From contig KZ538844.1 of the NCBI GenBank assembly GCA_000934665.2, forward strand, positions 62,001 to 94,709: a DNA stretch of 32,709 bases. Direction: 5' to 3'. A program made the translations under genes and the position numbers. Positions 5,241 to 27,849 of the stretch are shown here, in pieces. The notes beneath the pieces were generated by a model. That model made no database searches. It was not told the DNA's origin and was given only the letters and a program-made list of their open reading frames with translations. The stretch is from Catajapyx aquilonaris (Eukaryota). The stretch's first letter is position 1; each line of letters begins with the position of its first letter.

Positions 5241-5382
5241 TGAAGGTCCCGGTGGACGAAGACTCGGTCTGTTGGCTTCGTCTTCGACAGAATCCGACGC
5301 ATTCCCGGTGTCTATTCTTGACTCTGCCAGGAAGAGAGGGTCATATACTTCTACTTGCACAGTCTGAGAAAGAGCCTCGAAG

Positions 5383-5665
5383 ATGTCGGATGAAGAGGAA
5401 GTGGTGGAGGAACCCCTGGTAGTGAAAGAGGATTCCTTGCAGTATGCTGCTGGAGGATTCGGAGGACTTTTTGGCGGGGCCTTGAAAGCACTGAATCCGA
5501 GTGCACCACCACCCCAGCAGCCTTATCCTGGTTATCCAGGAGGACCCCCACAGAATTATGGAGGATATGCACCGATGGGAAGCAACTACGGAGGATCGGC
5601 TGCAACTAGTGATGGCCTTGGAGGAGTGCTCTTTGATGCCCTCAAGGGCGTTATTGGGCAGCAAG
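5383..5665 (+). CDS. CalpA/CalpB: Calpain long-isoform exon 1 (acidic start, Gly/Pro/Tyr-rich)
   Basis: Acceptor at 5362, ATG 5383, [11 protein letters not shown]...[15 protein letters not shown], phase-1 donor G|gtgtgt. Confidence 0.8.
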
Positions 5666-8600
5666 GTGTGTCTGACTGCAAAGCTCTTTCGCAATGGTTC
5701 ACCCAAAATGTTTAGAACTGCACTGGGGAAACTGTCAGCTGAGTTGAGACATCCTGAATATTTTCGCTGCTCTTAAAAATAATTTTCACTGCAGGACACT
5801 TCCCTATGATTCACGCACGTTTTTACTTACAATTTCGACATTAACACATCCTGTTTTGTCAGCGCTTCAATTCTTGCAGTACTGCTGCCATATACAATTA
5901 TTGCAGGAAATGGCCAGTGTTGAGTCTTAAATTCATTTTCTCCGTCATGCTCAGTGTCACATTTTGCTGAGCAAGGCATTCTTCACTAAAATTGCAGTCT
6001 TTGCACCATACGTAGATTGACAGGAAAAGCATGCTTTGGGTGAACTTCTCTAAAACCAAATGCTATGCTTGATCGCTTCAAGGTGGAGGTGGGGGCGCCC
6101 CAGGAGGGTACCCTGGATACCCTAGTGGTCCACCAGGATATGGAGGCTATGGACCACCTCCTGCTCCTTATGGAGGAGGGTATGGACCTCCTCCGGGAGG
6201 TTATGGCCCTCCTCCTGGTCAGTATGGAGGCTACCCACCAGCAAACCCTTATGGGGGATATCCACCTCAAGGAGGATATCCACCTCAAGGAGGCTATGCT
6301 CCTCCAGGTTCACATGGGGGCTATGGTCCACCCCAAGGGGGCTATCCGCCTCAAGGTGCTGGACATCCAGGTGGTTTCGATATTGGAGGTTTACTGTCCA
6401 TGGCACTCAAAAGTGCCGTTGGTGGAGGAGGAGGAGGAGGAGGCGGATATCAACAGCCAGGATACCCACCACCACAGCAACCACAGCCAGGCGGATTCCA
6501 GATGCCTGGTGGCGGCGGCGGCGGCTTGATGGGAGGATTGCTGTCTGGTGCACTTGGATCTCTCGGAGGTGGGCAGCAATATGGATTTGCATTGTTGCTG
6601 AAGTGCAAGCCAGTACTTTATTTGGAAGCATCTTGCAAAAGCATGAATTTCTTAAAATGAAGTCTCAAGAGTCAGAAATTAAGAGGGGTACAGTAGAACC
6701 TTGATTATCCGACCGTCCCTCTCCGGCAATAAATCTGTTTTTTCATGAAATACTGTAATGTTCTATGCATTTGTTTATTCTGCCATAGTTAAATAGTAAC
6801 TACAGTACAGTAGAGGCTGTGTAAAAGATAAATACTTCACTATTTCTGAGAAAACCATAATATTGTACGTTATTTCATGTTTTTTTTGTTTTTCTGTGTG
6901 TTTTATTAAAGTTTTTTACTAATCGGATTATCCAACCTTTTCGGTTATCCGACAATGCCCCAGTCCCGTTGGTGACGGATAATCGGGGTGTTCAACTGTA
7001 TCTTACAATGTGTCCCAACATCTCAACTGTTATAATTTTAAAGGGCACGTACGTCCATTAACATTAACTTAGCAGGTTCTATTGCAGACAAAAAGATGAA
7101 GATAATTTTAATAGAAGATATGCTCAAAATATCTCCATCTTTGTGTCTGCTATAGTGCATCAGGGCCTGTAAACCTTAAGTGCATTGACATCTAACTCCT
7201 GAGGAATTTTTCTAATAGCCTTTTCTCAAATTGAGATGTGAATATTGTAATATACCAGTGCTCTAGTGTCACATTAATAAGTTCCAGTCATTTGTGCATT
7301 TTGAATTATCTTTTGTCCTATATGTGGTGCTAATAAAGGGCCACCTGTTATGTCGATTGTGACTGAGCCAACCCCCCGCAACTCCCATGATATGGTGGTG
7401 TAATTAGAGAGTCCCTGCAGCCTGGAATTTGGCACCCACAGGCATCTTATGATTCGGGTGGACTCCTGACCCAACCTGAACCTTCCTTTCCCAATCAGCT
7501 GGTCTGGAGAGCATTAGCAGATCGCCAGTCAGCCACCCGAATCGTAAGATGCCTATGGGGCTACGCCAGCGCCAAATTCCAGGCTGGCGAAGACTTTCTA
7601 ATTAAACTACCATCACCATAAGGCTAGGCTGGGAGTTTGGGGGGGGGGGGGTGGACTGAGCTATAAACATAGGGCATAATGGCTATCCCTTCTTCAGCAC
7701 AATTTATTAGTGAAACATGAAGTATATGATTATGCTCAAAGATCTGGAACTTGGTCCCATGTAATGCAGAAGGAACTTTGGACAGAACATAAACTCTCCT
7801 AATGTAACATAATCATAAACTAATTTATTTCTTATTTAAAGTATTAAAATATGCATCTAATTTGTAATTAATTGGATAGCTAACAATTAATTCTGGTTTG
7901 GTGTAACATATTCACACATACATACAGTGGTATACAGGTCACTATGTGTCAGGATTGAAAATTACAGTGTTCAATACATTACGTCAGATTTCATGAATGG
8001 ACTTAATATATTCCATTCTTGAAATCTGAAGTAAGATACTGTATTACAATCCAACAGGGCATGGTGTGCCATTCTGACTGGAATTGGGAGCGAATTAGGA
8101 AACTAGGCAACTTCCAAGTAGAGTACTGGTAAATTGTAACCGCTGTACATTGCATTGTTCGGTGATTGTTGTCAGGGGGAGGCCAGAAGCAGCAAGGTGG
8201 TGGGGGAGGCAACTTGGTTGGAGGGCTGCTCTCTGGAGCACTGGGAGCAATGGGTGGAAAGCAAGGGAGCGGAGGTGGAGGTGGGGGTCTGGGCAACATG
8301 CTGCAAGGAGCCCTCGTGTCCGGTCTGATGGGCGGGGGAGGGCAAAAGCAGGGGCAGGGAGATCTCTTGGGAAACCTACTGTCTGGGGCTCTCAAGTCTG
8401 CGGTGAGCCACCAGGTTGGTACAGAAGCTCCTGGTGATGAGGAAAAGTCGTCTTTTGGGAGCATGCTTCAGACTGTTGGATCCCTGCTGCCATTAGCATT
8501 CAAGATGTATGGCATCGGACAAGATGACAGTGGGCAGCCAAGCAGCCTCATAGGGGAGTTTGGGGACTTCTTCATCGACACACTCATCAGGCCAAGAAAG

Positions 8601-11600
8601 CGTCCCACACCAGATATAGGAAAGTTCAATATTGTGAGTTGAAAGTCTTCTATCTGTTTTTGTCTGCAGTTTCCAACATTCATGCTTTTAAAAAAGGGCA
8701 CTTGGATTGGAAGATTATGCCTAGTGTGTACAGTCGACATTATATATTATTTTCATTCTCTGCCAAACCTTGGGTAGGAAGGGGCATTATTACTGCTATT
8801 GCCTTAGGAGTCGTCTTATATGGTAGCTGTCTGAAATTGATTGTGGCCTCTTGAAATTATTTGGTTTTGGACTGCACAGTCCATTACAAATGTGGAGGAA
8901 ACCTCTTCTGAATGGACAATATGTGAAAAAAATGTGCTTTAATGTAGGGGTGGCTGTTTTGGAACAATTTGACCCAAACCCAGTGGCAGTAGTAGTTGTT
9001 GGCCCGTTGACTTCCATGTCATCACCCAATACCCAGTCAATGATTGAAATGTAAAAAAGACAAACTCGGAAAACTTGAGGCTATTTCAGCCTAGTTGTAG
9101 AGGATAAGCATATGTCTTGGAATTGTTGGCAATTGTGTTCTTAGCTACATTGTCATCTTTCGAGTTTTGAGATTACATTTATACTAAAATTCTACAAAAG
9201 TACGATCATTTGACAGCTTCCTGATCCATATACTGTGATTTTCCTAAGGTCTGTTGTCATTGCTAAGCAATCAGCCATACTGTGACAAATGAAGTTGCTG
9301 AGGATTTGTTTATAGCAAATGAGGTGCTTGTTGATGGGTTGGTAGCATTTAGTCCTTTGTTGTTCATCTCCAAAGTGTCATAACAGGTTCAAAATTTTCA
9401 AGTGCCACACTCTTTTTTCGATAAAAAAACGAGGTTTCCCTCTGGAAATTTAGCAGTAAGTAAATCTTTTCACATGATTAACCGCTTCTGCCATGCCTAC
9501 TATAGTAGCAGACATTTATAAACCCCGCGTTCACGTGCAGAACTTCCGGCCAATGATGACTAGCCAGTTGCGAGTAATTGAATATATGACTGCATCGACA
9601 TGTCGCCCCCGCCACGTCTCTGGATGAGCTCAGATCCTAAAATTGCTAGCTGGACTCATTGCTATCTGCAATGAGGTTGTCCATGTTCCTTGTCACTGGA
9701 TTGAAAGGTGCGTCTTGTTCTTGAGGAATACTGCTTTGGTCATTGGCCCTTTGGAAAGCTGCCAGGCTGTAGGTCTTTGCCAAGGGAAATAACTTATGGA
9801 GTGGGGATAAGACGCCAGCTGGTAGCGTTGCGTTGTATTTATTTGGCACAAATTTGCTGGACTCAACGGAGTTCGTGTCGGTATACGTATCATTGTAATT
9901 ATTTAAGTGCGGCGGGTTGCACGCTATGTCGCGTAGCTTCTAAAATAGGGTGGGGCTGTTATCAGGCGGGATTTTTAATGCCGTTCATGTAAAGCTGGAG
10001 AATAGGAATGGCTGACTTTAACTGTGTACCATGGTCACAAGAGCACGAAATTGCAATTGCTATTTTAATGTTGCACAAAACTTCGATAAAATTATTCGTG
10101 AGCTCTTTTGTGGCCTTGCATTTGGTTGAATCGGATGTGTGAAATGGAAGTATCGCCAAGTGCATGAAATTCGTCGAAGGGTCGAAAATTCCGCGAAATA
10201 TAATTGATAATTCAAAATTCGCTCGATTGTCCAAAGCCGCCATACTCGATTATGCTCTCTGGGTAATTTGACCGAAACGGACCTGACAGGTGCACTTGTG
10301 AGTGTAAGACTTCGAAATTGCCAGAAAGACGTGACGAATTTATTGTGGCATTTTAAAGCACTACATGCAATAAACAATTAAGATTTAATACCACAGCAAG
10401 AATTTGAGTCACGGACATGATAACAGCCTCTGTGGTATTGTCCGATTCCAACCTGGCAAGTGGGATACTCCAGGAGCGTAATTAGATCGCATAGGAAAAT
10501 AGTTTTCGCTCCTAATATTTCCGGCAAGTAGAACCCTATATTCAATACGCCCCGATGAATATATTGGATGACCTCACCCTGAAACGCGATCTCATACAAA
10601 CTGGATGTTGCCACATGCCAACTGCATTTACTAAGAAAGTGCGGATGTGAGTAATAATGAGGATGAGAGGACCCAATTTCGTCCCTTTGACATTGACCGC
10701 AATGGCATACACCCCCTGAATCGAAGTGCCAGCCTCGGAGGAAGCGTGTACCACGGGCTCGGAATCAATAGCGGCAATAAGGGGCGCTTTCTACCCCCCC
10801 ACTCCTGTAACCCGATAAACATGGCTTCCTTCAACTCATGTGCTTAAGTGGTCGTATCTCTTCTGAGAAGTCCCCCGAGTCAGTCCAGGATGAGTGACAC
10901 AGAAGACATGGAGGAGCACGAGGAAGAAGGTGGCGATGGAGACGTGGAAGAATTTGGTGACTTTTTGGACGAGTTGAGAGGATTTGCGCGGGAAAGACAA
11001 CAACTGACCTGGGATGTGGAACCGAGTTCTGTAGACATTTTGGATTTAGTATCGAAACACGTGTCCAAATATACACGCTTTTTGCCCTCCATACGCGGCC
11101 TGAAAGTGGTAAGTGTTGAAATGGCAGATGGTGCTCGATTTATGACCCAGCGGGTTTTTGTGTGCGGCATGTACAAATATACAGTATATTTTTATGAAAG
11201 AGCGCGCATGGCGCCAGTGACCTCATCGTGCCGACCTTTTTCCGTCGGTGTTGAGTGACATCATTTTGCGGAAATCGATGCTTTTGTTAGGTATGAATAG
11301 ACCGTTTGGTATATGTTTGGAGGGGTGGTTTTGCCTAAAAAGCGTACCGGTGTACGGCCGTGATGTAAGCGAATATGTCGCGTCTAACCGAGGCCACATG
11401 TGGCAAATAGTGGAATATTTCATAAGCTCACGCCATGCAGAAAAAAAAAACTATCGACCTCACACTATGCAGCTAAAATACACTTAACGTATGCCATAAT
11501 AGCGTAAAAGTGTTCCCGGAACGAAATAATCTTGCACACATGTCCATAACCACATCCAGCACGTATTCTGTAAGCAACACAACCCAAATCGGGACAATAG

Positions 11601-14600: not shown

Positions 14601-17600
14601 TAAATTTTTTTTTTAAACAGGCAGAGTTGATAATGAGTTCTCCGAGGTTTTATTGGGCCCATTCTTTTCATTGGCTAAGTTTAACATGAGCAGTAGAAAA
14701 GTAACATTTTATATTGGTCACTTTTAATGCTCATAGTGTGTTAAGAATTTTATTTTGATGAAGCAGCCATCATAGTAGTGCTTCTAGGTACAACACAGTG
14801 AGATGAGCTGCTACGGCATAGCTTGACTGTTATGACACTTTGCAATGTGGAAGGCACTAGTTAGAAAAATTCATGAGAAACAGGGACCTGCTAACCATCG
14901 TGAAGCTCCTGGTCGCCGTTCAGTAGGTTTTGCCTTGGAAAGTACTGGCGGGAAGCGTCAAAGCCTTCAAAATGTAATGCACAATTCAAATCTTTCACCT
15001 GTTGTGAGCCTTAGGGCCAGTTGTATGAAAGTAAATTAAGGAGAAAATTTCCAATTAAGCATATTCTAATTCATAACCAGAGCTTTTATCCTTAATTTGC
15101 AATGTTACAATTGGCCCTTCGTGTTGTGTCAGGAAATCAGGGTTCTGGAAATCTAATTCTTTGCCATTTTCAGCTTGGTGAACGTGGATCTGGCCTTCGA
15201 CCACATGGAACTGTTCAAGATTTTTATGCCCTTCGAGACCAATGCATGCAAGAGGGCAGATTGTTTGAGGATCCAGACTTTCCTTGCACCGATAAATCCA
15301 TTTTCTTCAGCAGGAAACCTCAGAAAGCATTTGTTTGGCGGCGGCCTCATGTGAGTAACATCTGTTTTATAAAATGTATTGGATTTATTGATTGCATTCA
15401 TCCACAGGAAATTATACATGATCCCCGTTTGTTTTATGAAGGGGCCAGCAGATTTGATGTTAAGCAAGGTGACCTAGGTATGTTCTGTCTTGCTTGATGA
15501 CGATGTAACTCTCACAAGGTGTAATTGCATGTTTCACTGTGAACTTCAATCTGCAGGAGATTGTTGGCTTTTGGCTGCTGTGGCCAACCTGACTCTGAAC
15601 CCCACCCTTTTGCATCGTGTGGCACCAGAAGACCAGAACTTTCAAGAGCTATATGCGGGAATATTTCACTTCAGGTATGCCATCTTGGGAGTTGCACATC
15701 CTCAGATGAAACTAAGCATAAGCTATATTTTAAAATATTTGCAGGTTCTGGCAGTATGCTCGATGGATAGATGTTGTCATTGATGACAGATTGCCAACTT
15801 ACAATGGGAAGCTTGTCTTTATGCATTCAGCCAGCAAGCAGGAGTTCTGGAGTGCCTTGCTGGAGAAGGCCTATGCAAAGTGAGACATAATCTAATCTAT
15901 GATGCAAACTGAGTCTTGGCAAGTCTTGGTACATTTTGGCTTTGCATGTACTGTACAGGAAGTACCCATTTTACGCCGTTAATTAGTTCCAGCAAAACGA
16001 GGTGTAAAGTGAATTGGTGTAAAATGAGACAAAATTATAATGTATGTCAATAAGATAGGTTCCAAAATTTCCAAAAAATTTCCATAAGCAGTACTAATGT
16101 TGCGGTTTTTAATGCTGAATATTTGAAACATTGATTAATGGGAGGTTCCAGGTTGAGGGCCATTGGGTGTTGAGGGCTCCTTTCCTTATTTAGGCAAAAA
16201 TTGCAGTACACGTTGAGTATTTAACAGCGGTTAGAGTACTTCGGGGAGTGCCGAGACCAACAATATGGTACTGTATGTATCGATAGAACCTGCCACAAGG
16301 CACCAGGAAAAACAAAAGAAGAGCCTTTACAGTTGTGTGTTTGGACTGAGAAGTGTTGCAGTGATGTGTTTATGTTTAGATTGTGCTATTTTCAAATTTT
16401 GCGATAGAAAATTTTCAAATGTAATACAGGGTCATCGAAAAAGAATGTCCCATTTTTAAAACCATATTTATAATTCGAAAACTTCCAGACATATTTTAAC
16501 CCAGATATGCAGAGTGTCCCCTATAGGGGACACCTGCACAGTTGTTATATATTTATTTTTTTGCGCTGGTTCTTCTGCTGCTAAAGAGCTGGCAGTAGTC
16601 ACGGGGGCTTCAGGAGAGTCCCAGCTAATGATGCAAGTTCAAACCTGCTCAAATATTGCTTCAGCTTTTTAAGATACAGGTGTTTGAATTTTAACTCAGG
16701 AAATAATGGCTGCACCTTCATGTTCCGTTCTCGAATATTGATTAATGTTATGAGTTATTTGTTATTTGTAATACTTAGAAAACTTATGAATGATGATGTC
16801 GAGGGGAAATATAGGGATATTTTTTACTTTCCTTGTCTGAGAGTAGTGTTGAAATCTGGTGTCCCCTCGGGGGAACACAAGAGGCAAATGCACCCACATA
16901 CCCGTGATAGGGGGAAGGGGAGGTTCCCAAGGGAGGGAGCTGTAATTTTAGTCATTTCTGACTTTGTGAAATACACCAGACCTTTTTCTCCTGGCCCTGG
17001 GCAGAGTAGGGAGTGCAATTCTGCCCCGGCATGTCAGGTGAAAAGTGGAAAAAGACCCGGCCAAGCAGAGGTAGCGGGGACGGGATTTGAACCCCGGCCT
17101 CCTGCTTGGCTGGCCAGTGGTGTAACCACTAGACCACCATGCCTCCCCTAAATTTAATACAAATCCTTTGCTCCCTAACATCAGCCATTTCGAAAAAATC
17201 GCAGAAGCACAAGAACACGGTGTCAAGATAACTGCTGAAACTCGGAAACATGTGCACCTATGGAGACGATATTTTTCAGACTAATAGCTGAAAGGTGCTC
17301 CTAGCGCCCCCTAGCGTCACAAGTTCGTACCTGCACTGGTTTGCACGGTGTATCGACAGTCCGGGAACTTTTCGATCACACCTCGTATTGTCTGGCCAGT
17401 GACTGACTGGATCATCTTGCCCTATTTGTGTCACAGTATGTCAGGATCATCAGCTTAATTATTGGAACATATAGATTTGTCAGTGTTGATGAGTGTTAGA
17501 GCTCTGTCAGAATAATGTTGGCAGGTTTCATTAGATGTGCTGATCACGATGTCAGCCTGAAATCTACAGACAGTAGTACAGTTCAAATCATCGCTTTTAA

Positions 17601-20600
17601 AACATGTTTATTCTTCAGAATTTAGCTCTCATTCTTTTATGGGTAGAAATTTTGTGAATGCTCACCCCTGTGAACCCCTGTGAATGCTGTGAACCTTCAA
17701 GTTAGGCATGTAATCATGCACACTCTTGGAAAGCCCATTAAATGGGCATTCTGACTGTGTGTGTAACTCACTCCCATACTTGAAGGCAAGGTGATAGGAG
17801 CTTGTGAATATAAGAGTCTGTCGATGTGAGGTCAATTCTGTAACATGGATTATAATGTGCTTCATCCCTTGGTAGTTGCTTGCAGAGCAGCAATTATTCT
17901 ATATTTTTGCACAAATTTTTTACCTGACTTGTTGCAAAGATGTTGAAGACGTGTAATCCCAAGCATCTTCAATGAATGTACACTTAATACATCTTCCTTA
18001 CTTTTGGCAGGCTGTTTGGTTCCTATGAAGCACTCAAAGGTGGCACCACCATGGAGGCCATGGAGGACTTCACTGGTGGAGTTACTGAAATGTATGAACT
18101 GGAAAAAGCACCCACGAACCTGTTCAAGATTGTGCTGAAGGCTGCAGAACGGGATTCCCTTATGGGCTGTTCCCTTGAGGTACCTTGAATGAATATACCA
18201 TTTTGCATATACCAGGTTTGATGGTTGGGATCACGGTCTTAGAAGGAGAGGTCGGGAAACTCCCCGCCATCTTGCGATCCGTTACTCAATCCCGCCGTGG
18301 CGCTGACTGGAGGTGGCCATGATGTGAGGATCTCCATATTGCGGCCATCTTGGTATACGCTATCGGTAGTAATCGGGAGGGGAATCGTCCACGGACCGCC
18401 AATTCAAATCGAGTGTTCTCCAGGGTCGCGAGATCGTGATCACAACGGATATCGATACCTGCCGATGGTGATACCGGTATGCAAAATCGATTCCATAAGT
18501 GCTGTTGATGGGTTGTACCGACAGGGTCGCTAGTTGTTATGGCGAATGAACGACACGCACAGCGAGATTCCATTGTTTTTACTAGCGCCGCTGCGGGAAG
18601 GAATAACGGATCGGCCTTTTCTATTGCGCTGGGATAGAAGTGTCCAGGGGCTGGTTGGGATATTGATAACATCGGTGCAGAGCATTTCCTCTCCCCCTTG
18701 ACATTTGCATATCAAGTGTAATTTATTGCTATCACAGTAAATTATTGTCCATTACAACAACTTTTCAAATGATGTGTTCAGGCATGTATGCAAGCTGTAC
18801 AATGACACACTATGGACTGTTGCACCTGTTCAAAAATCCCATCAAAGGGAAATATCTCTTTACATGCCGTCATCATCTGTGGTTGGTTTCCTTATAGAGT
18901 TATGTGCTTTAAAAATGTCAAACCTCTCTAACTCAAAACTTCTATAACTCGAAGTTTTTTCCTGTCCCATGGAGATTCGACTTATAGAAGTTTTACTGTA
19001 CTTCAATGTGACGTGCACTAATCTTTTTCATTTCATCTGCAGCCTGACCCAAACATAACTGAAGCAGAGACTCCTGAGGGCCTGATAAAGGGTCATGCTT
19101 ATAGTGTGACTCGGGTGAAGATGGTGGACATTAGCACCCCCCGGGTGTCGGGGAAGATTCCCTTGATCCGTCTGCGAAATCCATGGGGGAATGAGGCAGA
19201 GTGGAAGGGACCATGGAGTGATGGGTCACAGGAATGGCAATTCATCTCAGAGGATGAGAAAGAGGCCCTTGGATTGACCTTTGATGATGATGGGGAATTT
19301 TGGATGTCCTGGAAGGACTTCCTCACTCGGTTCACACGAATGGAAATCTGCAACCTGAGCCCAGACTCACTGGAGGGGGAGGATGGAGAAGGACGCTTTA
19401 AGTGGGAAATGAGCCTGTTTGAGGCTGCATGGATCAAGGGAGCTACTGCAGGTGGATGCAGGAACTTCCTTGAGACCTTTGCACATAACCCACAGTATCG
19501 GATTGAGCTGGATGATCCAGACGAGGATGATGAGGATGACAAGTGCACTGTCATTATTGCCCTGATGCAGAAGAACAGGAGGGCACAAAGGAAGCTTGGA
19601 GTTGACTGCTTGGCCGTAGGGTTCGCCATCTATCATGTGAGATGACAGTAGTCTTGCATGCTTTGGAGAGGGAAGATGAAACAATAAAACAGTCAAATTT
19701 TTTAATTATGTAAATCGGGAAATTTTGTGGACTTGAAATTTTCATCTTAACTTGAGGGCCTTTAAGGCCATGGTAATTGTTGATGTGGGGTAGGGCTGCA
19801 TGAGACATGCATTGATTTCATTGCCATCATGAGGCAAGTTGTATTTTGCATACATGTAGTGTAATTATCAAATAGTTTCTCTATATTTGGGTAATTAGGT
19901 GGGTGGATTTACTTAGGGATGCAGGTATTATGCTAGAGTTGCAGGCATGCAGTAGTGCATCATTATTGGCAGAATTTTAATTGAATGTTCAAGGGATTCC
20001 ACATGATGGTATCAACGATGATGATACAATGCCTCCCAATAATATTATACAAAACTATACAAAATTATACAAACATAGTCTATCTAGGAGATTATTGCCT
20101 CTTCAGCAGAAAGTTACTGTTGTCGACCACTGCTATCAGGGTATGCATACTGATCATAATAATGGATACCCCGTGATAGGCCCCTTGGGTCTCGTAGAGG
20201 ATCATCTTTTGAATAACCGACTTTAATCATTTGACTGTAATGTGATGGATTTTGATAGTGGGAGGAAATGGGAGAACCCCGAGAAACCCACGCGAACACG
20301 GAGAGAACCCATCGAAACTCTCTCCGCATAAGTATCCTCCGTCCGACCCAGGGATCGAACTCGGGACCTTAGAGGTGGAAGGCTGCGGCGCTAACCACTC
20401 TGCCACCGTGTCACCCTTATGCATACTGATCAACTAACGTTGCCAGTTTTCAAACAGGGGCACACATACCCAGATCGTACATGCAATTTCTGATATAGGC
20501 TATGCTTCTGTGTAGTTTTTAGGGGGATATTCTGTAAACATTTTAAAACTTTTCACAATATCTCTTTTTTCTGTATATGCTAATATTACCATCAAACAAT

Positions 20601-23600
20601 ATTGAGTGATTGACAGTGTTACATAGCAGTTGATCATCAGCAAAATAGTTCATAAATTGCAATGAAGGAAATTAGTAAAGGGCATTGGAAATTAATTTTG
20701 AACTTTGAGTGTGTAGTGCTACTTTTTCTATGTGGTGGTTTGCATTGTACAGTACCCTGCATTAATGGCCATTCACAGACATCGCCACCTGTCCAAGAAC
20801 GAGCGGAATTAGGCGTCGGTGGGCTGTGTCCAAAATACTTGGACAGCTCAAGATATCGCTGTTGATTCAAACGCTTGCTACGAAGCTGGATCACAGCAGA
20901 TCACAGATATATCTGTAGGATGAATTGTAAGGCCATTGCGGTTCCTGTCAATGTATTGAGGTTGTGAACCAGTTATTACACGTACCACGTGAATACCTGT
21001 TAATCCACCGTGATATCTTGAGCCGTCTAGAGCGGTCTCGTGAGCAGTATTGGTGATCAAAGTATTTTGGACACAGCCCACCGACGCCTAGTTCCGCTCA
21101 ATCCCGCCAGGTGGCGATGTCTGTGCATGGCCATTAATGCAGGGTACTGTATGATTTGGGTACTCGCTTCAACGGTACATATACTAAATTGGAACTGTAT
21201 GATTTGGTGACCATTGAATTCATATGATGCTTTATTTATATTAAATGATTTAATTGCAATGATTTGTATCAGTTTCTGATTAAAAATTTCGCAATATTTT
21301 GGGAGAATTTGCATGAGATTACCATTAGTTAACCTTAGCTTCTATGGTGCAGAATGACTTGAAGAGCCAGAAATGATATTGTGCATATTTGATCTGACTG
21401 ATCTGCACTGATCTAATTTCAACCAAAAACAATTTGTATTGATTGAAAATTTGTAAGAAATATTTTGCATTGGTAGTACGCACTTTTCACTTAAAATTGA
21501 TGAGATGCCCTAAAGACCTTATTTCATTTAAAAATAACCAACATTTTATTTGTTTGGCTAAATTCAGATTTGACGTAAGGCACAAGTTGGCTGGGTAATG
21601 GAGGCTCTACCCATGTAATTACATGCTGTAATTGGGTGCAAGGTCGTTATGATGTGGAAAAAATTCGCTCAACAACACCTCTTTATTTTCTATTGTTGTA
21701 TGATGTTATATGCCTTTTAAATGAAATGTAACTTGATTATCTATCTTCCGTTTCAGTTAAGAGACCCTGACAGGCTGCCCAAGCCTCTGGACATGAACTT
21801 TTTCAAGTACAACAGCTGTGTAGGAAGAACGCCCACTTTTATCAACCTGAGGGAGGTGAGCTGCAGGTTCAAGCTACCTCCAGGTACCTACTGCATTGTG
21901 CCTTCCACCTTTGACCCCAATGAGGAGGGGGAGTTCATCATCAGGGTCTTCTCAGAAAAAGGAAGCCACATGCAGTGAGTGAATTTATAACACACTGACT
22001 TTCACCAAATATTTTTCTCTTTTGCAGCAGTAACTCATGCTGAAAATTTGAACATGTAAAAGTGACTGATGTTTCAAAATGTTACTGAGTGCATTTTTTT
22101 ATTTTTTAGGGAAAATGATGAGTCTTTAGGTGTGGGAAATGTGGATGATACAGTAAGTGAATGAGAACCTGACACGAATGTTTCAAAATTCAACATCCTC
22201 ATGACACTGTTCTTTGTTCAAGGTTAATGAGGTAACACCTCAGGAAGAAGAGCATGAGGAGAAAATTCGTCAGTTTTATGTCACAATTGCTGGCGAGGAT
22301 GGTGAAATTGACTGGCGGGAGTTGAAGCAGATCCTAGATTATGCTCTCAAGAAAGGTGAGTGGCTGTTTACTCCTAAAATGAGGAGTGGAAAGCAATTGG
22401 AGTTGGTACAATGAGGGTGCTTCTGGTGTGTTGAGGAATTTAGGACATTCGCCTGCATTACATTAATATACTGCACAATTCTTGTGTAGCAGCTCTAAGT
22501 CAAGAAGTTTGTTTGCACCCTAATTTGGACAGATTTGTTGAAGACAACAGTCACGGGAAGCACAAGTTTGCAAAATTAACATGGAATTATGGTGTGGTTG
22601 GTTTTGATATAAAATTTAATCCTCAGTCTCGGAGTTTGTGTGTACAGTAGTGGTGTTAGGTGGTGTGTGTGGATTTAACACTTGTAATATTTTTGGAATG
22701 TACATGTATTTTTTATTATTTTTCGTGCTTCGTCCGTTGGATTCTTCCAGATGAGGATGGAGATGGCATCCTGGGTAAGCCAAGAAGCATGTTTGTTGAC
22801 ATGCCAAACCTGTAACAATAGTCGCTTTCTCTGGTGAAGGGACAGCACACACAAGTTGTGAACTGTATCAACAAGCACTTATATCCACAAAGCATAAAGT
22901 AGTGCAAGATGTACCCATGTAGCATTGGGTGCACTCATTCTTTTCTGTCACTGTTCTTTTACTGTTGCTTACTGTCTGGACATTTTCCCCATAACATTCC
23001 TTACTTCTATTTTTGGTGAGTGCACTGCACCAGTAGTGTATTAGCGTATATGCCTGCCAGGTTAGCTACTCAGCTATTGATGCTGTGATGAATTACTAGA
23101 ATTTTGTGAAGTTGTCATATTCATTAATATGGAACCTGATGGTTTTCCACTTTCTTCTGCACCAAATCACGGGCTGGAAATCAGAACAATTCACAAAATA
23201 CTTGTTTTTAAGATAGTTGCATTCTTGGCCAGCTACAGCTAATACATATTATGAACGAAGTGCAAGGACATGACCCAATTTCTAATTCTTTCCTTGCTTT
23301 CTACAAGGCGGCTGTGTCATGGACACCACTGGTGGGGATTCCTGCACCAGTGATAACAAAAATTAATTAGTATTTCTGGTTTCAAAGCAAACATTGTATC
23401 TGAACAAGCATTAGCTAATGGCTTAAGTCATGTGCAATCCGTTGCTATTAGCTTATACTGCAATAATAATGCTCATGTCTTAAACTGTAAAAATAGACTT
23501 AATATGGACCTAATATCTTAACGTTTTAAAAACACTTTGACATATAAACCACTTGTGCAGTTCCTATCTGAAGAAATACATTGACATTTAAAATATCTAT

Positions 23601-25910
23601 AAAATATCTATAGAAATCATGACAAAGACAACGGGTGGAATTTTCGTCCCACTGCTAGTTATTACTGCTAACTTGGCAGTGCCAGTGTTGGCATTGGTAC
23701 TGCTATGTTAGCAGTATCTAGCAGTGGGACGAAAATTCCAACCAGCATTTTCATTTACAACAGGCAATATTTATTAAGTAAAGCAAAGTTTAAAATGTTA
23801 AAAAAAAAAATCCTTCGAGAGAAAGAGTCGTCACTTGTTGCCATGTGCTTTGAATCAGGCTATACCTATATGTTGCAGCTTGCTAGGAGAGTCTCTGTCC
23901 AGTATCTGAATATCTTGCTTCATCGGTGGTCTGTATTATAGCTCCCAGCACTCCATGCCATTTTTTAAAATCACTGATGGATCTTTGCTTGTTGGTCCTC
24001 CCAACCCCCTTATGAGTTGAAGTACAAAATGTGCACCATATTGTTTCCTTAATTTTTTCTCTGCCTTTGCGTCTAATTCTCAGTAGCACGTTGGTGGTGT
24101 TAGTAATGTGAAATTAATCATTTTGAATGTCCTTTATTTTACAATGCAGAGTTCCAGTTTGAAGGATTCAGTAAAGACGTATGCCGCAGCATGATAGCTA
24201 TGCTTGATTCCGACCGTTCTGGAAAACTTGGTTTGGAGGAATTCAAGACACTATGGATGGACATCAGAAAGTGGAAGGTATTATAACTGAGACTTTTATC
24301 AAATCATTATTATTAAAAGTAAATTTAAAGGCAGTTTCTACTCAATAAAGCAGGTATTACAACTCATAGATTGGTACATGTTGTATACTGTGCTTTTTTG
24401 AGAGCCTCCAATGTGTTAAGTGGAAACTGCTATTTTTTTTATACATTGGATATACTATATGGACTACCTTTCTCACTTTTGTAAACACTGGCAGAGAGAG
24501 AATATTTACAGTCATATAAAACAGCATTATTACCATTAGTCTATAATTGCTATTCTAGTATCAAGTGTATAACCAAAAGCCATGTTGCTGAGATTTACCC
24601 ATGCTTAAATAATAACCTTATGTGCACCTAATATGAATACCAATCATGTATTGTTAAAAAGCACTCACACACACAATCATGTTTTGGTATTCCCCTGTTA
24701 TTTTTATATATGCTATTTCTTGATTTCAGAATGTCTTCAGCCAGTTTGACCATGACAAGTCAGGCCACTTGAATTCATTTGAACTCCGGGCTGCACTGAA
24801 CCATGCTGGTTACCGTCTAAACAACCACGTCCTGAATGCCCTGGTCCTGCGCTACGGAAATCGTGAGGGCCATCTCTCCTTTGATGATTTCATCATGTGT
24901 GCTGTGAAGCTCAAGACTATGATAGGTGAGGATGGTGGGGGATTGGAGGGTTTGGAAGGGGTCGACGTTGATGACTACATGGCAGTGGATGATTATTTCG
25001 ACCGGTCTAATGACTACCTGGATAACCTGGAGTCTGCTCCTGATGAAGGGGAGGAGGATGGGGAGGAAGGGGAGGAAGAGGTGGTGGAGGATCCAGCAGA
25101 ACTGGACTTTGAGGACCAGATTGTTCAGGGAGAGGATGACATGTGAGATAATGCCATCAGAAAGGGGAAAGTCTTGACGTTATTTTTGCAAAGCCCACGC
25201 AATTCACGTTATATTTTTGTAGGTTGAAGAAATTGCAATGTTGTTTTGTACAGGTTATTTTTGGTACTACACTAATGTTTTTTTCACCTGAACTTATAGC
25301 TATTTATGGTACATTGTAGAAGTGCAAGCTGTACCAAAGTCCTGCTACTTGCCACCATCATCCTAGGTGATGGTGTTAAGCACAGGAAACTTTAGGATCA
25401 CCTAAATCATAATATGTAATGCACAAAGTAATTAGAGTAGAAGGCAAACATGTGCAATGACATACAATAGGTTAACATGCACATTCCATGTAGTACACTG
25501 CACAAATGCTGTAGGTTGTGCTGTCAGCTGCATCACTCTGTCATTTTGGTGGAGAGATGACAATGAAGTCCAAGGCGTGTGAAATCCTTTCTGATGGTGT
25601 TTTCTGCAGGATGCTTACGCTTGACTAAAAATGATGGGGAGATGAGCATGACCTGCTGACAGTATTTTGGCTTTTTCTGGTGGTGGTATTTTTTATTTTT
25701 ATTTCTTTTATGGTTGTGGGAGGTTGTGGGAAAGGAAAGATACAAAACAATATCTGTGAATGCAATTTACAGCTGACTGGCTCTCATCTTTATTTTCTCT
25801 CTTTCCCCCCTCCCACCCATGCAGAACTCTTTCAGGAGCGTGACCCCCTGCGAACCAACAAGGCCGTTTTCACGCTTGATGAGTGGGTGGAAAGAACACT
25901 GTACTCTTAA
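5383..25910 (+). CDS. CalpA/CalpB: Classical calpain (calpain-A/B-like), long isoform, 15 coding exons, 1097 aa: Gly/Pro/Tyr-rich domain I, CysPc, CBSW/C2-like, penta-EF-hand
   Basis: join(5383-5665,6083-6568,8176-8633,15174-15350,15408-15477,15557-15674,15745-15879,18011-18179,19043-19636,21757-21974,22110-22152,22223-22355,24150-24277,24730-24925,25825-25910) = 3294 nt, all GT-AG with matching phases. Motifs [12 protein letters not shown] (Cys 15562-4), GHAYS (His 19094-6), RNPWG (Asn 19178-80), EWVERTLYS*. Confidence 0.93.
6083..6568 (+). CDS. CalpA/CalpB: Calpain long-isoform exon 2 (GYPP/GYGPPP repeats, poly-Gly)
   Basis: Open 486-nt phase 1-1 exon [26 protein letters not shown]...[12 protein letters not shown], with an exact 18-nt tandem repeat at 6256-6291. 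The ORF track shows only part of this frame. Confidence 0.8.
6691..6998. mobile_element. pogo/Tigger-type MITE
   Basis: TA-CAGTAGAACCTTGATTATCCG ... CGGATAATCGGGGTGTTCAACTG-TA, with internal TTATCCG motifs. Confidence 0.75.
7327..7700. mobile_element. Fold-back element with long imperfect inverted arms
   Basis: taattagagagtc..cagcctggaatttggc..aggcatcttatgattcgggtgg (about 7400-7461) pairs with ccacccgaatcgtaagatgcct..gccaaattccaggctg..gactttctaatta (about 7533-7604). Outer ends gtgctaataaaggg and cccttcttcagcac. Confidence 0.75.
8176..8633 (+). CDS. CalpA/CalpB: Calpain long-isoform exon 3 (Gly clusters and GGLLSGAL repeats)
   Basis: Phase-1 gtcag acceptor. Ends ...[27 protein letters not shown]|gtgagt in phase 0, joining LGERGSG at 15174. 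Confidence 0.85.
9512..9713 (+). promoter_or_regulatory. Candidate internal promoter and non-coding exon
   Basis: TTTATAAA near 9515, then CACGTG, ETS-like ACTTCCGG, CCAAT and an Inr-like CCAGTT by 9570. Donor AAG|gtgcgt at 9707/9708. Marks the start of a CpG-rich block. Confidence 0.35.
10555..10638 (+). CDS. Candidate alternative first coding exon of calpain (28 aa, Cys-Cys)
   Basis: [28 protein letters not shown], phase-0 donor AAA|gtgcgg. A stronger gtgagt at 10647 is phase 2. Confidence 0.45.
10890..11108 (+). CDS. CalpA/CalpB: Alternative first coding exon of calpain, CalpA-like N-terminus (73 aa)
   Basis: [15 protein letters not shown]...[11 protein letters not shown]...[12 protein letters not shown]|gtaagt, phase 0. 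Resembles the Drosophila CalpA N-terminus as recalled (MDDLRGFLRQ...KRVLPSIKNMRV-LGE). Confidence 0.85.
12022..12057 (+). CDS. Alternative first coding exon of calpain, minimal N-terminus (12 aa)
   Basis: cgccATG context, [12 protein letters not shown], consensus phase-0 donor |gtaagt. Confidence 0.7.
12493..12564 (+). CDS. Weak candidate alternative first exon (24 aa, or MDK from 12556)
   Basis: [24 protein letters not shown], phase-0 donor AAG|gtatta, identical to the constitutive donor at 24277. Confidence 0.3.
13105..13401 (+). CDS. Alternative first coding exon of calpain (99 aa, basic, Ser/Thr-rich)
   Basis: TATAAAA at 13051-13057, aaaATG at 13105, open frame [24 protein letters not shown]...KPKTDIFK, phase-0 donor AAG|gtattg. 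Confidence 0.7.
14491..14592 (+). CDS. Weak candidate alternative first exon (34 aa)
   Basis: [34 protein letters not shown]. Only weak phase-0 donors (CCG|gttaca, ACA|gttaaa). Confidence 0.3.
14845..14973 (+). CDS. Candidate proximal alternative first exon (43 aa)
   Basis: [43 protein letters not shown]. Phase-0 donors at 14923 (gtaggt) and 14974 (gtaatg). CpG-containing Arg codons are retained in CpG-poor surroundings. Confidence 0.4.
15174..15350 (+). CDS. CalpA/CalpB: Calpain first common exon (start of CysPc)
   Basis: ttttcag|[37 protein letters not shown]...FVWRRPH|gtgagt. Confidence 0.95.
15408..15477 (+). CDS. CalpA/CalpB: Calpain CysPc exon
   Basis: [24 protein letters not shown]|gtatgt. 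Confidence 0.95.
15557..15674 (+). CDS. CalpA/CalpB: Calpain CysPc exon with the catalytic Cys
   Basis: [40 protein letters not shown]. Confidence 0.96.
15745..15879 (+). CDS. CalpA/CalpB: Calpain CysPc exon
   Basis: [45 protein letters not shown]. Confidence 0.96.
15956..16072 (+). mobile_element. Tigger/pogo-like left-end fragment
   Basis: TA-CAGGAAGTACCCATTTTACGCCGTTAATTAGTTCC followed by repeated GGTGTAAA. No partner end found. Confidence 0.4.
16496..16533 (+). mobile_element. piggyBac-like terminus with a 20-bp palindrome
   Basis: TTAA-CCC start and perfect palindrome gtgtcccctataggggacac at 16514-16533. Confidence 0.4.
16820..17148 (-). mobile_element. tRNA-derived SINE (family 1)
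   Basis: A box TGGTCTAGTGG (17136-17126), B box GGTTCAAATCC (17093-17083) and an A-rich end near 16820. The body recurs at 27702-27849. Confidence 0.85.
17190..17387. mobile_element. Mariner-related non-autonomous element end
   Basis: Terminus agtccgggaacttttcgatcacacctcg-TA resembles the mariner TIR at 266-295 (agtccgggaatgacttgaacactcctcg-TA). Left boundary is approximate. Confidence 0.6.
18011..18179 (+). CDS. CalpA/CalpB: Calpain CysPc exon
   Basis: [56 protein letters not shown]|gtacct. Confidence 0.96.
18240..18700. mobile_element. GC/CpG-rich intronic insertion, probable transposon remnant
   Basis: Abrupt CpG-rich block in a CpG-poor intron, repeated GCCATCTTG motifs, weak terminal complementarity, no recognisable ORF. 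Confidence 0.35.
18917..18998. mobile_element. Tiny pogo/Tigger-type MITE
   Basis: aaaacttctataactcgaa pairs with ttcgacttatagaagttttactg-TA. Confidence 0.6.
19043..19636 (+). CDS. CalpA/CalpB: Calpain exon with catalytic His and Asn and the start of the CBSW/C2-like domain
   Basis: [51 protein letters not shown] and acidic loop [10 protein letters not shown]. Confidence 0.97.
20157..20417 (-). mobile_element. tRNA-derived SINE (family 2, V-SINE-like core), full length with target-site duplication
   Basis: A box TGGCAGAGTGG (20405-20395), B box GAGTTCGATCCC (20362-20351), ATT-repeat tail and exact 15-bp TSD tatgcatactgatca at 20142-20156 and 20418-20432. Confidence 0.9.
20750..21149. mobile_element. 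Tc1/mariner-superfamily MITE, 400 bp
   Basis: TA flanks and about 90-bp TIRs: cagtaccctgcattaatggccat..acagacatcgccacctg..taggcgtcggtgggctgtgtccaaaatactt and its reverse complement. Confidence 0.9.
21757..21974 (+). CDS. CalpA/CalpB: Calpain CBSW/C2-like exon
   Basis: [19 protein letters not shown]...[41 protein letters not shown]. Confidence 0.96.
22110..22152 (+). CDS. CalpA/CalpB: Calpain linker exon
   Basis: ttttttag|(Q)[14 protein letters not shown]|gtaagt, phases 2 to 0. Confidence 0.9.
22223..22355 (+). CDS. CalpA/CalpB: Calpain PEF exon (EF1)
   Basis: [45 protein letters not shown]|gtgagt. Confidence 0.93.
22493..22591 (+). CDS. Candidate cassette exon 1 of the PEF insert (33 aa)
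   Basis: tagcag tandem acceptor, open phase 1-1 [33 protein letters not shown]. The donor G|gtgtgg is uncertain. Confidence 0.4.
22751..22774 (+). CDS. 24-nt cassette microexon of the PEF insert (DEDGDGIL)
   Basis: attcttccag acceptor, G|gtaagc donor, phase 1-1. Confidence 0.7.
22923..23015 (+). CDS. Candidate hydrophobic cassette exon of the PEF insert (31 aa)
   Basis: Strong donor G|gtgagt at 23016 and open phase 1-1 [31 protein letters not shown]. The acceptor catgtag is weak. Confidence 0.35.
23308..23331 (+). CDS. Candidate 24-nt cassette microexon of the PEF insert (GGCVMDTT)
   Basis: Branch-like ctaat, then polypyrimidine tctttccttgctttctacaag acceptor; donor G|gtgggg; phase 1-1. 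Confidence 0.45.
23634..23743. repeat. 110-bp near-perfect hairpin (palindromic MITE)
   Basis: tggaattttcgtcccactgctag..tactgctaac..gcagtgccagtg pairs with cattggtactgc..gttagcagta..ctagcagtgggacgaaaattcca. Confidence 0.85.
24150..24277 (+). CDS. CalpA/CalpB: Calpain PEF exon (EF2)
   Basis: [43 protein letters not shown]|gtatta. Confidence 0.96.
24730..24925 (+). CDS. CalpA/CalpB: Calpain PEF exon (EF3-EF4)
   Basis: [66 protein letters not shown]|gtgagg. Confidence 0.96.
24926..25146 (+). CDS. Alternative acidic C-terminal extension (read-through of the last donor), 73 aa
   Basis: Frame stays open [12 protein letters not shown]...[24 protein letters not shown], 32 of 73 residues Asp/Glu. 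Exon-like composition ends shortly after the stop. Confidence 0.65.
25825..25910 (+). CDS. CalpA/CalpB: Calpain terminal exon (EF5)
   Basis: Long polypyrimidine tract, gcag|[28 protein letters not shown]. Confidence 0.95.
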
Positions 25911-27011
25911 ATAAGAGTAGCTGACCGCTGGAATGACTTTGGGTGCCAATCATATTCTCCCTTTTCTTCTCTTGAAAAAAATGGCTTCTTTTATGCAATG
26001 TGCAAAGCATGCACAGAAAGAGAGAAGAAAGAGTGAAAAGTAGAAGCCTGGTGGTGGGTTTTTCCTGCATCACAAGTACTGATGGATTCCAAAGCAGTAT
26101 GCGCCATACTTCAGCCAGTGGAAAATTAAATCATTCAAAAAAATATATCTTGTGATCTGCTTGAAATTTTGTCCCAGAAAGACAGCGGGCAACAGTTTTC
26201 CGTGCCTTGAGTAGGAATTTGGCCATAACCCTTGATGAGATACTAACCGCCATGTTAGCACTGCTATTAGAAGCATGATTCAGAGCAGTTTGTCTATTTC
26301 TCTCGTTCCACTGCCTCAATGCACAATATTCTTCCTGATTATACCCTAACTCCTAACTCATGAGCATGTGTTTCATGTGCATGTGGGCGCCATCTTAAAA
26401 GTGCTGAACTATTTTTAGCATCAAGTTTTGATCAGCCTAATGTGTATTTCCGCCCCCAAACTTTGTTATCTCATTTTACTGAATGTAATGATTGTAATGT
26501 GTGTGTGATCAACATGTATAACATGATGGTAAGTGTAATTGAAGTTGGCGACAAAAACAACATTTTGTGAGTATTTAGATGCAGCACTATTCAAAATTGC
26601 CATCAGGGGAAGTAGGTACGGTACTTGTGGCAAATGTGTTTTTGTTGCATATGTTACCTATTATTTTACCATCATTGGAATCCACTCGTTGATTTAGAGT
26701 TACAAGAACTGCATGGATGGACTTGAATCTGTTGGAGAGGGTGAATATGTGAACCAAGTTTTAATCTTGTTGAATTTAATGTGCTTCATAATATAGCAGT
26801 ACATAATTATGTGCTGGCCAACAACGCAATCACATTTAATTTTGATGACATGTATGAGCAGAAATATATTAATCCATTACAGTCTTAGTGTTTTCTTAAC
26901 GATTGAAAAGTGACTTTTTTACAGTAAGAAAATTGTGCACTCATGCACTGCATGAGTGAGGTATGTCATTCACTGAGGAATGTGTGTTCTGGGTGTTTCT
27001 CCGGCCTCTGC

Positions 27012-27017
27012 AATAAA
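27012..27017 (+). terminator. Candidate calpain polyadenylation signal
   Basis: First canonical AATAAA found after the stop, giving a 3' UTR of about 1.1 kb. Another lies at 27872-27877. Confidence 0.45.
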
Positions 27018-27701
27018 ACTTTAATGTTATTGGCATCTAGTACAGTACAAAGTGTGGAGCACAACCAAAAAAAAATCATATCCTCTTGTAAAGCCTAAAA
27101 TTATATTATGTCCAACCACTGCTTCTTGCCTTGTCCAGAGTTACAATCTGGGCCATATCAATATTCACTCTGACGTCTATCAGCATTGTAATAGCTTTTA
27201 GGTACTGTGATGTTGCGCTGGATTAAAAAATTCAGCAAGACTCTGAAAGGACTTGTGTTTCTGTGTCAGTTCTTGGAATACAAGGTCCTTCATTGGATGA
27301 TGTACCTCACTTGCAATCTGCGTCTGTCCTTTCTGTAAATCCCAAAGGTGCATAAGCACAGATGGTAACTAACATTTACAATGGGCAATTATCTTCTAAC
27401 TGCTTCCATTGAAAATACACGTGCAGCTCAACTTGGTTGCAAGCATTCCTGCCTTCACAAGACGTTCCTAGATCTGCAGAGAAGAAGGAGACTTAAATGG
27501 ATCTTGTTGGTCCAGCATCTGCCTGGACTTCCAAACCCTAAGAAATATGTACTGTGCATGGATATGTAGTAAATCTAGAAGAGGTTGGTTCTATAAGTTT
27601 TTTGCACGGTCGTAGATATATAGGTCTGGTCACTTTCGCCTTTGGGGACTGATGGGGTGGTGGAGAGAGGGTTGGCCACGATAGGGCTTTTCTTCAGGGT
27701 C

Positions 27702-27849
27702 AGGTCTTTTTCCGCTTTTCACCTGACATGCCTGGGCAGAATTGCACTCCCTTCTCTGCCCAGGGCCAGGAGAAAAGGTCTGGTATTTAAGAGGGTCAGA
27801 AATGACTAGAAACTACTTCAGAGCACCGTCCCTTTGGAACCTCCCCTTC
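27702..27849 (+). mobile_element. Headless fragment of SINE family 1
   Basis: ggtctttttccgcttttcacctgacatgcctgggcagaattgcactcccttctctgcccagggccaggagaaaaggtctggt matches the reverse complement of about 16915-17058. Confidence 0.8.

Follow-up and report, generated by a model that had tools for sequence, protein, structure and literature searches.

What does a calpain gene encode when its last 5′ splice site is left unused? The question is raised by a stretch of 32,709 nucleotides from Catajapyx aquilonaris (GCA_000934665.2, contig KZ538844.1, positions 62,001 to 94,709 of the forward strand), which we call the window. Judged by its sequence, the gene on the plus strand of the window is a pancrustacean classical calpain of the CalpA/B type. 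Beyond its last donor the frame of the penultimate coding exon stays open and would encode a strongly acidic tail in place of EF-hand 5 (EF5). We consider it probable that this stretch is a real alternative C-terminus, an unusually long member of a kind of isoform that is already annotated. The original prediction, a coding extension with an acidic C-terminus that replaces EF5, is supported by a codon model, an unspliced transcript contig and the isoforms of malacostracan calpains.

An acidic open frame beyond the last donor

The 3′ part of the coding region is laid out as follows (X1 is the transcript run described below).

24730–24925, plus strand: penultimate coding exon with EF-hands 3 and 4 of the PEF domain and a phase 1 end (tblastn, 70–72% identity to arthropod calpains)
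24926–25824, plus strand: last intron of the canonical isoform, 899 nt, GT..AG (X1 joint 24923→25823, cut +2; donor tag|GTGAGG, polypyrimidine acceptor)
24926–25146, plus strand: putative read-through coding extension, which with G24925 gives a 73-codon acidic tail and TGA at 25144–25146 (open reading frame, codon log-odds, X1 contig)
25048–25092, plus strand: low-complexity run of period 3/9/12 and GGA/GAG type (Tandem Repeats Finder, scores 35–45)
25825–25910, plus strand: canonical last coding exon, EF5, with the stop TAA at 25908–25910 (tblastn to the protein P0060, 74% identity; spliced joint)

The exon with EF3 and EF4 ends in ...AAG ACT ATG ATA G|GTGAGG, thus in phase 1. Since the EF5 exon is the sole exon downstream, 24925|24926 is the last donor. 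When it is read through, G24925 and the following GT form a GGT codon for Gly, after which 72 codons lead to the TGA. The tail, GEDGGG...QGEDDM, comprises 73 residues with 16 Asp, 16 Glu, 10 Gly, one Arg and neither Lys nor His. Its net charge is −31 and the charge-hydropathy criterion scores it as disordered. An open frame of 73 codons with 32 Asp/Glu and a single basic residue, in a GC-rich, exon-like stretch that turns AT-rich after the stop, had been predicted, and both points are borne out. The GC content is 0.534 in 24926–25146, 0.485 in the exon 24730–24925 and 0.391 in the 677 nt past the stop (25147–25823), that is, it falls from 53% to 39%.

By the window's own stop-codon frequency, the probability of 73 open codons is 0.018, and of 20,000 mononucleotide-shuffled versions of the tail DNA, 1.2% stay open. 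The region is also open in another plus frame and in a minus frame. The second open plus frame is explained by a strong codon periodicity, as G takes 70% of the first and A 53% of the second codon positions. We scored the region with a codon log-odds model which compares 715 in-frame codons of the gene's other exons with its introns. The tail reaches +47.4 bits in the read-through frame and +8.3 and −14.0 bits in the other two, a score to which composition contributes a part, as acidic codons are common in the gene. None of 888 intron windows of equal length attains the score of the tail; their maximum is 6.7 bits.

These figures have to be weighed against the possibility that the intron is non-functional. 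The open frame would then result from a purine-rich, stop-poor composition, the unspliced contig would be pre-mRNA or occasional retention, and no protein would be made. We regard this as rather unlikely. The additional open frames speak for it, as do the 1–2% of composition-matched or window-wide trials that remain open. However, the codon score is specific for one frame and lies far above all 888 intron windows, and GC falls directly past the stop.

It appears improbable to us that the GA-rich stretch past the donor is mainly an RNA-level control element for splicing or polyadenylation, of the purine-rich enhancer type, with its coding capacity being incidental. The stretch is 66% purine, holds the GGA/GAG-type run at 25048–25092 and lies directly 3′ to a last donor that looks regulated. 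Yet no more than some 45 nt of the tail frame's 221 are repeat-like and the non-repetitive remainder has the same codon periodicity. Moreover, a search of 24000–27000 against Rfam returned no family. The two roles are compatible and both could hold.

Transcripts across the last donor

Transcript data come from one public run, X1, whose library type is unrecorded; among the runs listed for 24730–25330, none was marked as RNA. X1 contains 98% of the sampled words from 24730–25330 and delineates the following features.

25147–25576, plus strand: candidate 3′ untranslated region of the tail isoform, AT-richer with GC 0.39 (coverage by the unspliced X1 contig)
25562–25567, plus strand: AATGAA hexamer, as a hint a possible weak poly(A) signal, 9 nt before the contig end and followed by a GT/T-rich stretch
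25911–26861, plus strand: 3′ untranslated region of the canonical isoform (X1 contig 25823–26861, with a joint to the exon that ends at 24925)

On 21500–27500 the X1 contigs carry five GT..AG joints, and X1 therefore holds spliced molecules. Among these joints is the canonical 24925→25825, on a contig reaching 26861. The joint 24275→24728 shows that the preceding intron, 24278–24729, is bridged by a contig. In addition, an unspliced contig of 682 nt matches 24896–25576 with zero differences. It crosses the donor and the whole tail frame and then continues for another 430 nt. RNA that runs on over the unspliced donor may underlie this contig, whose exon side has 30 letters where the bridging rule is 31, in a library of unrecorded type. 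We infer that an exon side of 30 letters is what is expected at the fork of a 31-letter word graph.

The unspliced contig has a depth of 20.1, the upstream exon contig 33.4, the bin 25520–25720 5.7 and other intron contigs 4.2–5; these values are per contig, cannot rank the parts of the gene and are a hint only. Among the X1 matches listed, no joint or contig links 25576 to 25825 or to the EF5 exon. As contigs cannot reveal RNA ends, it is again a hint that a transcript ending within the intron is no less likely than one that retains all of it. The original prediction had assumed retention of the final intron. Unspliced RNA through the tail would agree with the contig, whereas its extension over the whole intron has to compete with an end inside the intron, since the contig stops at 25576. 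Further upstream, within a 1.8-kb intron, X1 has a bin of summed depth 26.9 at 23624–23911 and a contig loose end at 23624. An expressed repeat or an exon missing from the annotation could account for this signal.

We suggest that the two 3′ ends would arise as follows. Use of the last 5′ splice site would add the EF5 exon 25825–25910 to the mRNA. If the site is left unused, translation would continue for 73 codons into the intron, and the two 3′ ends would be mutually exclusive. Cleavage of the tail transcript would probably take place near 25576, within the intron, so that the intron would not be retained as a whole. Its product would keep the protease core, C2L and EF-hands 1–4 and exchange EF5 for the Gly-rich break GEDGGG and the acidic tail. 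The exit helix of EF4 would be broken at GEDGGG and a polyanionic tail would follow. The isoform is presumably translated and selected in Catajapyx aquilonaris. Its likely effect would be the removal of the EF5 pairing element, with a polyanionic tail that alters partner binding, solubility or the Ca2+ response. Loss of an unpaired, partly hydrophobic EF5 together with gain of a charged tail could also change the stability of the protein, its Ca2+ response or its partner binding.

Acidic tails in other arthropods and searches for relatives

We surveyed the C-termini of 206 arthropod calpains, of which 166 have an EF5 ending, 26 have other endings and 14 do not match the search pattern. The peptide of 25825–25910 resembles the EF5 endings of the 166. 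Thirteen annotated proteins from seven malacostracan genera (Oratosquilla, Homarus, Panulirus, Petrolisthes, Cherax, Procambarus and Penaeus) end in ...FIMC(S/T)VKLKTMM-G and then an acidic tail, 30–37 residues long and with a net charge of −13 to −18. Common to these tails is the motif DDPEKLQEFYDELM and then a run of E/Q; an example is GLEDDPEKLQEFYDELMAEVEDRPEEEDQEEDQEEE. Five of the tail-bearing species have the EF5 isoform as well (those of Homarus, Panulirus, Cherax, Procambarus and Penaeus). Across an alignment of nine tail isoforms, the tail residues G, Y, L and three E do not vary. Such invariance between shrimps, lobsters and mantis shrimp is unexpected of a mere intron, and thus the malacostracan tails appear to be constrained. 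Shorter read-through tails are also annotated in wasps (Nasonia, Copidosoma, Cotesia), Limulus and a moth. Gly is the first residue of all 19 tails of the read-through type in the survey, since it is dictated by G|GT. One [FYW]xx[LIV] site is present in 10 of the 11 tails examined, in most of them preceded by acidic residues, which we note as a lead only. The tail of the window had been described as hidden. As a kind it is not, because RefSeq-type annotations already list acidic-tail isoforms for lobster, crayfish, shrimp and mantis shrimp.

For control, the same intron was read through in three arthropod-like metagenome loci, where the frame runs for 9, 5 and 14 non-acidic codons. A fourth locus is intronless there. 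At 2272–2466 of the metagenome contig L003 the EF3–EF4 exon is fused straight to EF5, with no intron at this position. A non-functional intron in the window is thus at odds with related lineages that keep a selected tail at exactly the same place, and with read-through that stops within 14 codons in the three control loci.

Several results weigh against the alternative C-terminus. The donor tag|GTGAGG is near the consensus and hence efficient splicing is expected. The exon side of the unspliced X1 contig is one letter short of the rule, and the contig could stem from pre-mRNA. The tail was compared with a hidden Markov model of seven malacostracan tails; 54 of 2000 shuffles reach its full-sequence score and 1254 of 2000 its best-domain score. 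With a motif-only model of the DDPEKLQEFYDELM type, the two scores are reached by 319 and 1179 of 2000 shuffles. Homology to the malacostracan tails at the sequence level is rejected by these shuffles, and an alignment by eye to the motif is unsupported. A word-indexed search with the tail only against a collection of 5.8 billion clusters scored 329 candidates, none with E ≤ 10. Among 1.84 billion representatives, an exhaustive phmmer search matched a single protein, P0207 (E = 1.4e-4), which is an unrelated repeat protein of 640 residues. It contains five or more EGVDVDEF(K)..D units and lacks calpain domains. Probably this match is due to chance helped by repetition. Finally, a tree of one catalytic exon (204 columns, quick search) places the gene within a pancrustacean group (SH-aLRT 96) and outside the clades of Malacostraca (99) and insects (96).

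In the same tree the gene stands loosely (86) beside springtails and a barnacle, and the closest relative of the catalytic exon is 76% identical. As the tails show no sequence similarity beyond composition and the one-exon tree places the gene outside Malacostraca, common descent of the tail of the window and the malacostracan tails is not supported. By their sequences, what these tails have in common is position, first residue and charge. An exact look-up of seven variants of the tail frame in the protein collection found none of them, and the tail has no match in Pfam and PDB. The lack of a tail homologue in any search and the near-consensus donor are also points for a non-functional intron, as is the fact that other intron pieces occur as X1 contigs, for example 23163–23498 and 23711–24177.

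Two further origins of the tail were rejected. Compared with EF5 as a degenerate copy, it scores 6.3 over 6 columns in hhalign, a value also covered by 100 column shuffles, whose mean is 5.8 and maximum 9.8. Compared with the acidic or Gly-rich open frames upstream in the gene, it gives E = 17 and 0.54. The hydrophobic moment of the tail, used as a test for an amphipathic helix, is matched by 5.9–8.9% of the shuffles, and the malacostracan tails are mixed in this respect. That the frame belongs to another gene, either nested or as an exon spliced from elsewhere, is very improbable: an internal ATG (MAVDDYF...) would permit a product of 55 residues and nothing else was found in favour, but the frame runs on from the calpain exon without a break, has no Pfam family and no protein relative, and no X1 joint leads into or out of 24926–25576.

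A real alternative C-terminus may be part of a wider picture. It is conceivable, if doubtful, that the exchange of EF5 against an acidic tail is an old, selected switch of pancrustacean calpains, found in Malacostraca, in shorter form in wasps and, here, in a version of double length that is unrelated in sequence; the tail might then be a regulatory module. Such a module may be an acidic-aromatic motif for partner docking or a polyanionic sink for Ca2+ or partners, and may provide a second mode of control for calpains that lack a small subunit.

The calpain gene and known calpain systems

A tblastn search with four arthropod calpains yields ordered exons from 15168 to 21975 at 50–80% identity, so that protease core and C2L lie upstream on the same strand, as in a classical calpain.

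15168–15479, 15556–15678, 15743–15880, 18003–18179 and 19037–19642, plus strand: calpain exons by tblastn
21721–21975, about 22223–22355, 24150–24277 and 24730–24925, plus strand: calpain exons by tblastn, continued; the last coding exon ends at 25910

Among full-length relatives, the best contain both PF00648 and PF01067. The exon 24730–24925 attains 25.8 bits with Pfam EF-hand_6 (cut-off 25), and PEF chains of the PDB match it with E = 1.8e-21 to 1e-12, all matches being confined to residues 1–65. Together with the EF5 exon and the spliced joint, this gives the PEF domain with a terminal EF5 exon of classical calpains. Between the C2L and PEF exons, tblastn missed a micro-exon of 43 nt at 22110–22152, which is backed by two X1 GT..AG joints (21974→22110 and 22152→22223).

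Upstream of the protease exons the plus strand has long open frames at 5368–5715, 6073–6660 and 8166–8642, whose translations are rich in Gly, Pro and Tyr (GGYPPQGGY..., GGLLSGALG...). Their composition is like that of the long N-terminal extensions of decapod isoforms of 1000–1590 residues. Alignment to these extensions was not significant (E = 1.0 and 0.083) and a Pfam family was not found. An ATG-started acidic frame at 10848–10960 on the plus strand could be an alternative first coding exon; it has no Pfam match and its EFGDF(F/L) motif recurs in the frame 8166–8642. At about 16950–17130 on the minus and 27630–27810 on the plus strand there are near-identical translations (...F(S/H)LTC(R/L)GRIALP(T/S)LPRARRK...). 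They look like an interspersed repeat that is present twice, in opposite orientation, once in an intron and once downstream of the gene.

Arthropod calpains take part in moulting-related muscle remodelling, in development and in immunity. Truncated forms without the calmodulin-like domain are Drosophila CalpA' and crustacean CalpM. They likewise have an altered C-terminus which affects the Ca2+-binding domain. However, they lack the whole PEF domain, whereas the isoform proposed for the window would swap EF5 only and EF1–4 would stay.

In vertebrates, pairing of the PEF domains is mediated by EF5, both in CAPN1/2 with the small subunit and in the homodimer of CAPN3 (PDB 4okh), and the EF3–EF4 exon of the window matches these chains. 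EF5 is present in both systems, in the window in the canonical isoform. The vertebrate enzymes have a small subunit or form a dimer, which the enzyme of the window is not known to do. Passages of PMC5650170 describe EF5 as the usual pairing element of PEF domains and, citing Park & Emori 2008, state that the CalpB of Drosophila is believed to function as a monomer. The tail isoform had been predicted to be non-dimerising, and its tail to be a candidate for buffering Ca2+ or binding basic partners. Because CalpB is taken as monomeric in these passages (PMC5650170), the term non-dimerising may not describe the difference in arthropods.

A full-text search, whose coverage leaves out most subscription journals, found no description of a tail that replaces EF5 in arthropod calpains. 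Isoforms of such construction are known to public annotations, and we found no published study of them. If true, a conserved isoform in which EF5 alone gives way to an acidic tail would serve as a natural experiment on the role of EF5 in arthropod calpains. It would also offer a ready handle, namely isoform-specific knock-down and recombinant PEF domains with and without the tail. For annotation it would mean that calpain models in new crustacean-like genomes should have two 3′ ends.

Among the annotated isoforms, the wasp tails (Nasonia vitripennis X9/X14, GKDITEFDLLDYPYDPQSM; Copidosoma floridanum X3; Cotesia glomerata) begin at the same donor with the same first Gly, and EF5 is gone. They are 15–22 residues long, mildly acidic (net charge about −4) and aromatic, and unlike the tail of the window they have no polyacidic run. 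The malacostracan tails (for example Penaeus chinensis calpain-A-like X1, Homarus americanus calpain-A-like X3 and Oratosquilla oratoria calpain-B-like X6) differ in their length of 30–37 residues and in the motif DDPEKLQEFYDELM, whereas the tail of the window has 73 residues without that motif. In construction they are alike. The same phase 1 donor is read through after ...FIMC.VKLKTM(M/I), Gly comes first and an acidic tail stands for EF5. In the window, too, the tail is strongly acidic and has its own stop, with 32 of 73 residues Asp or Glu and a net charge of −31.

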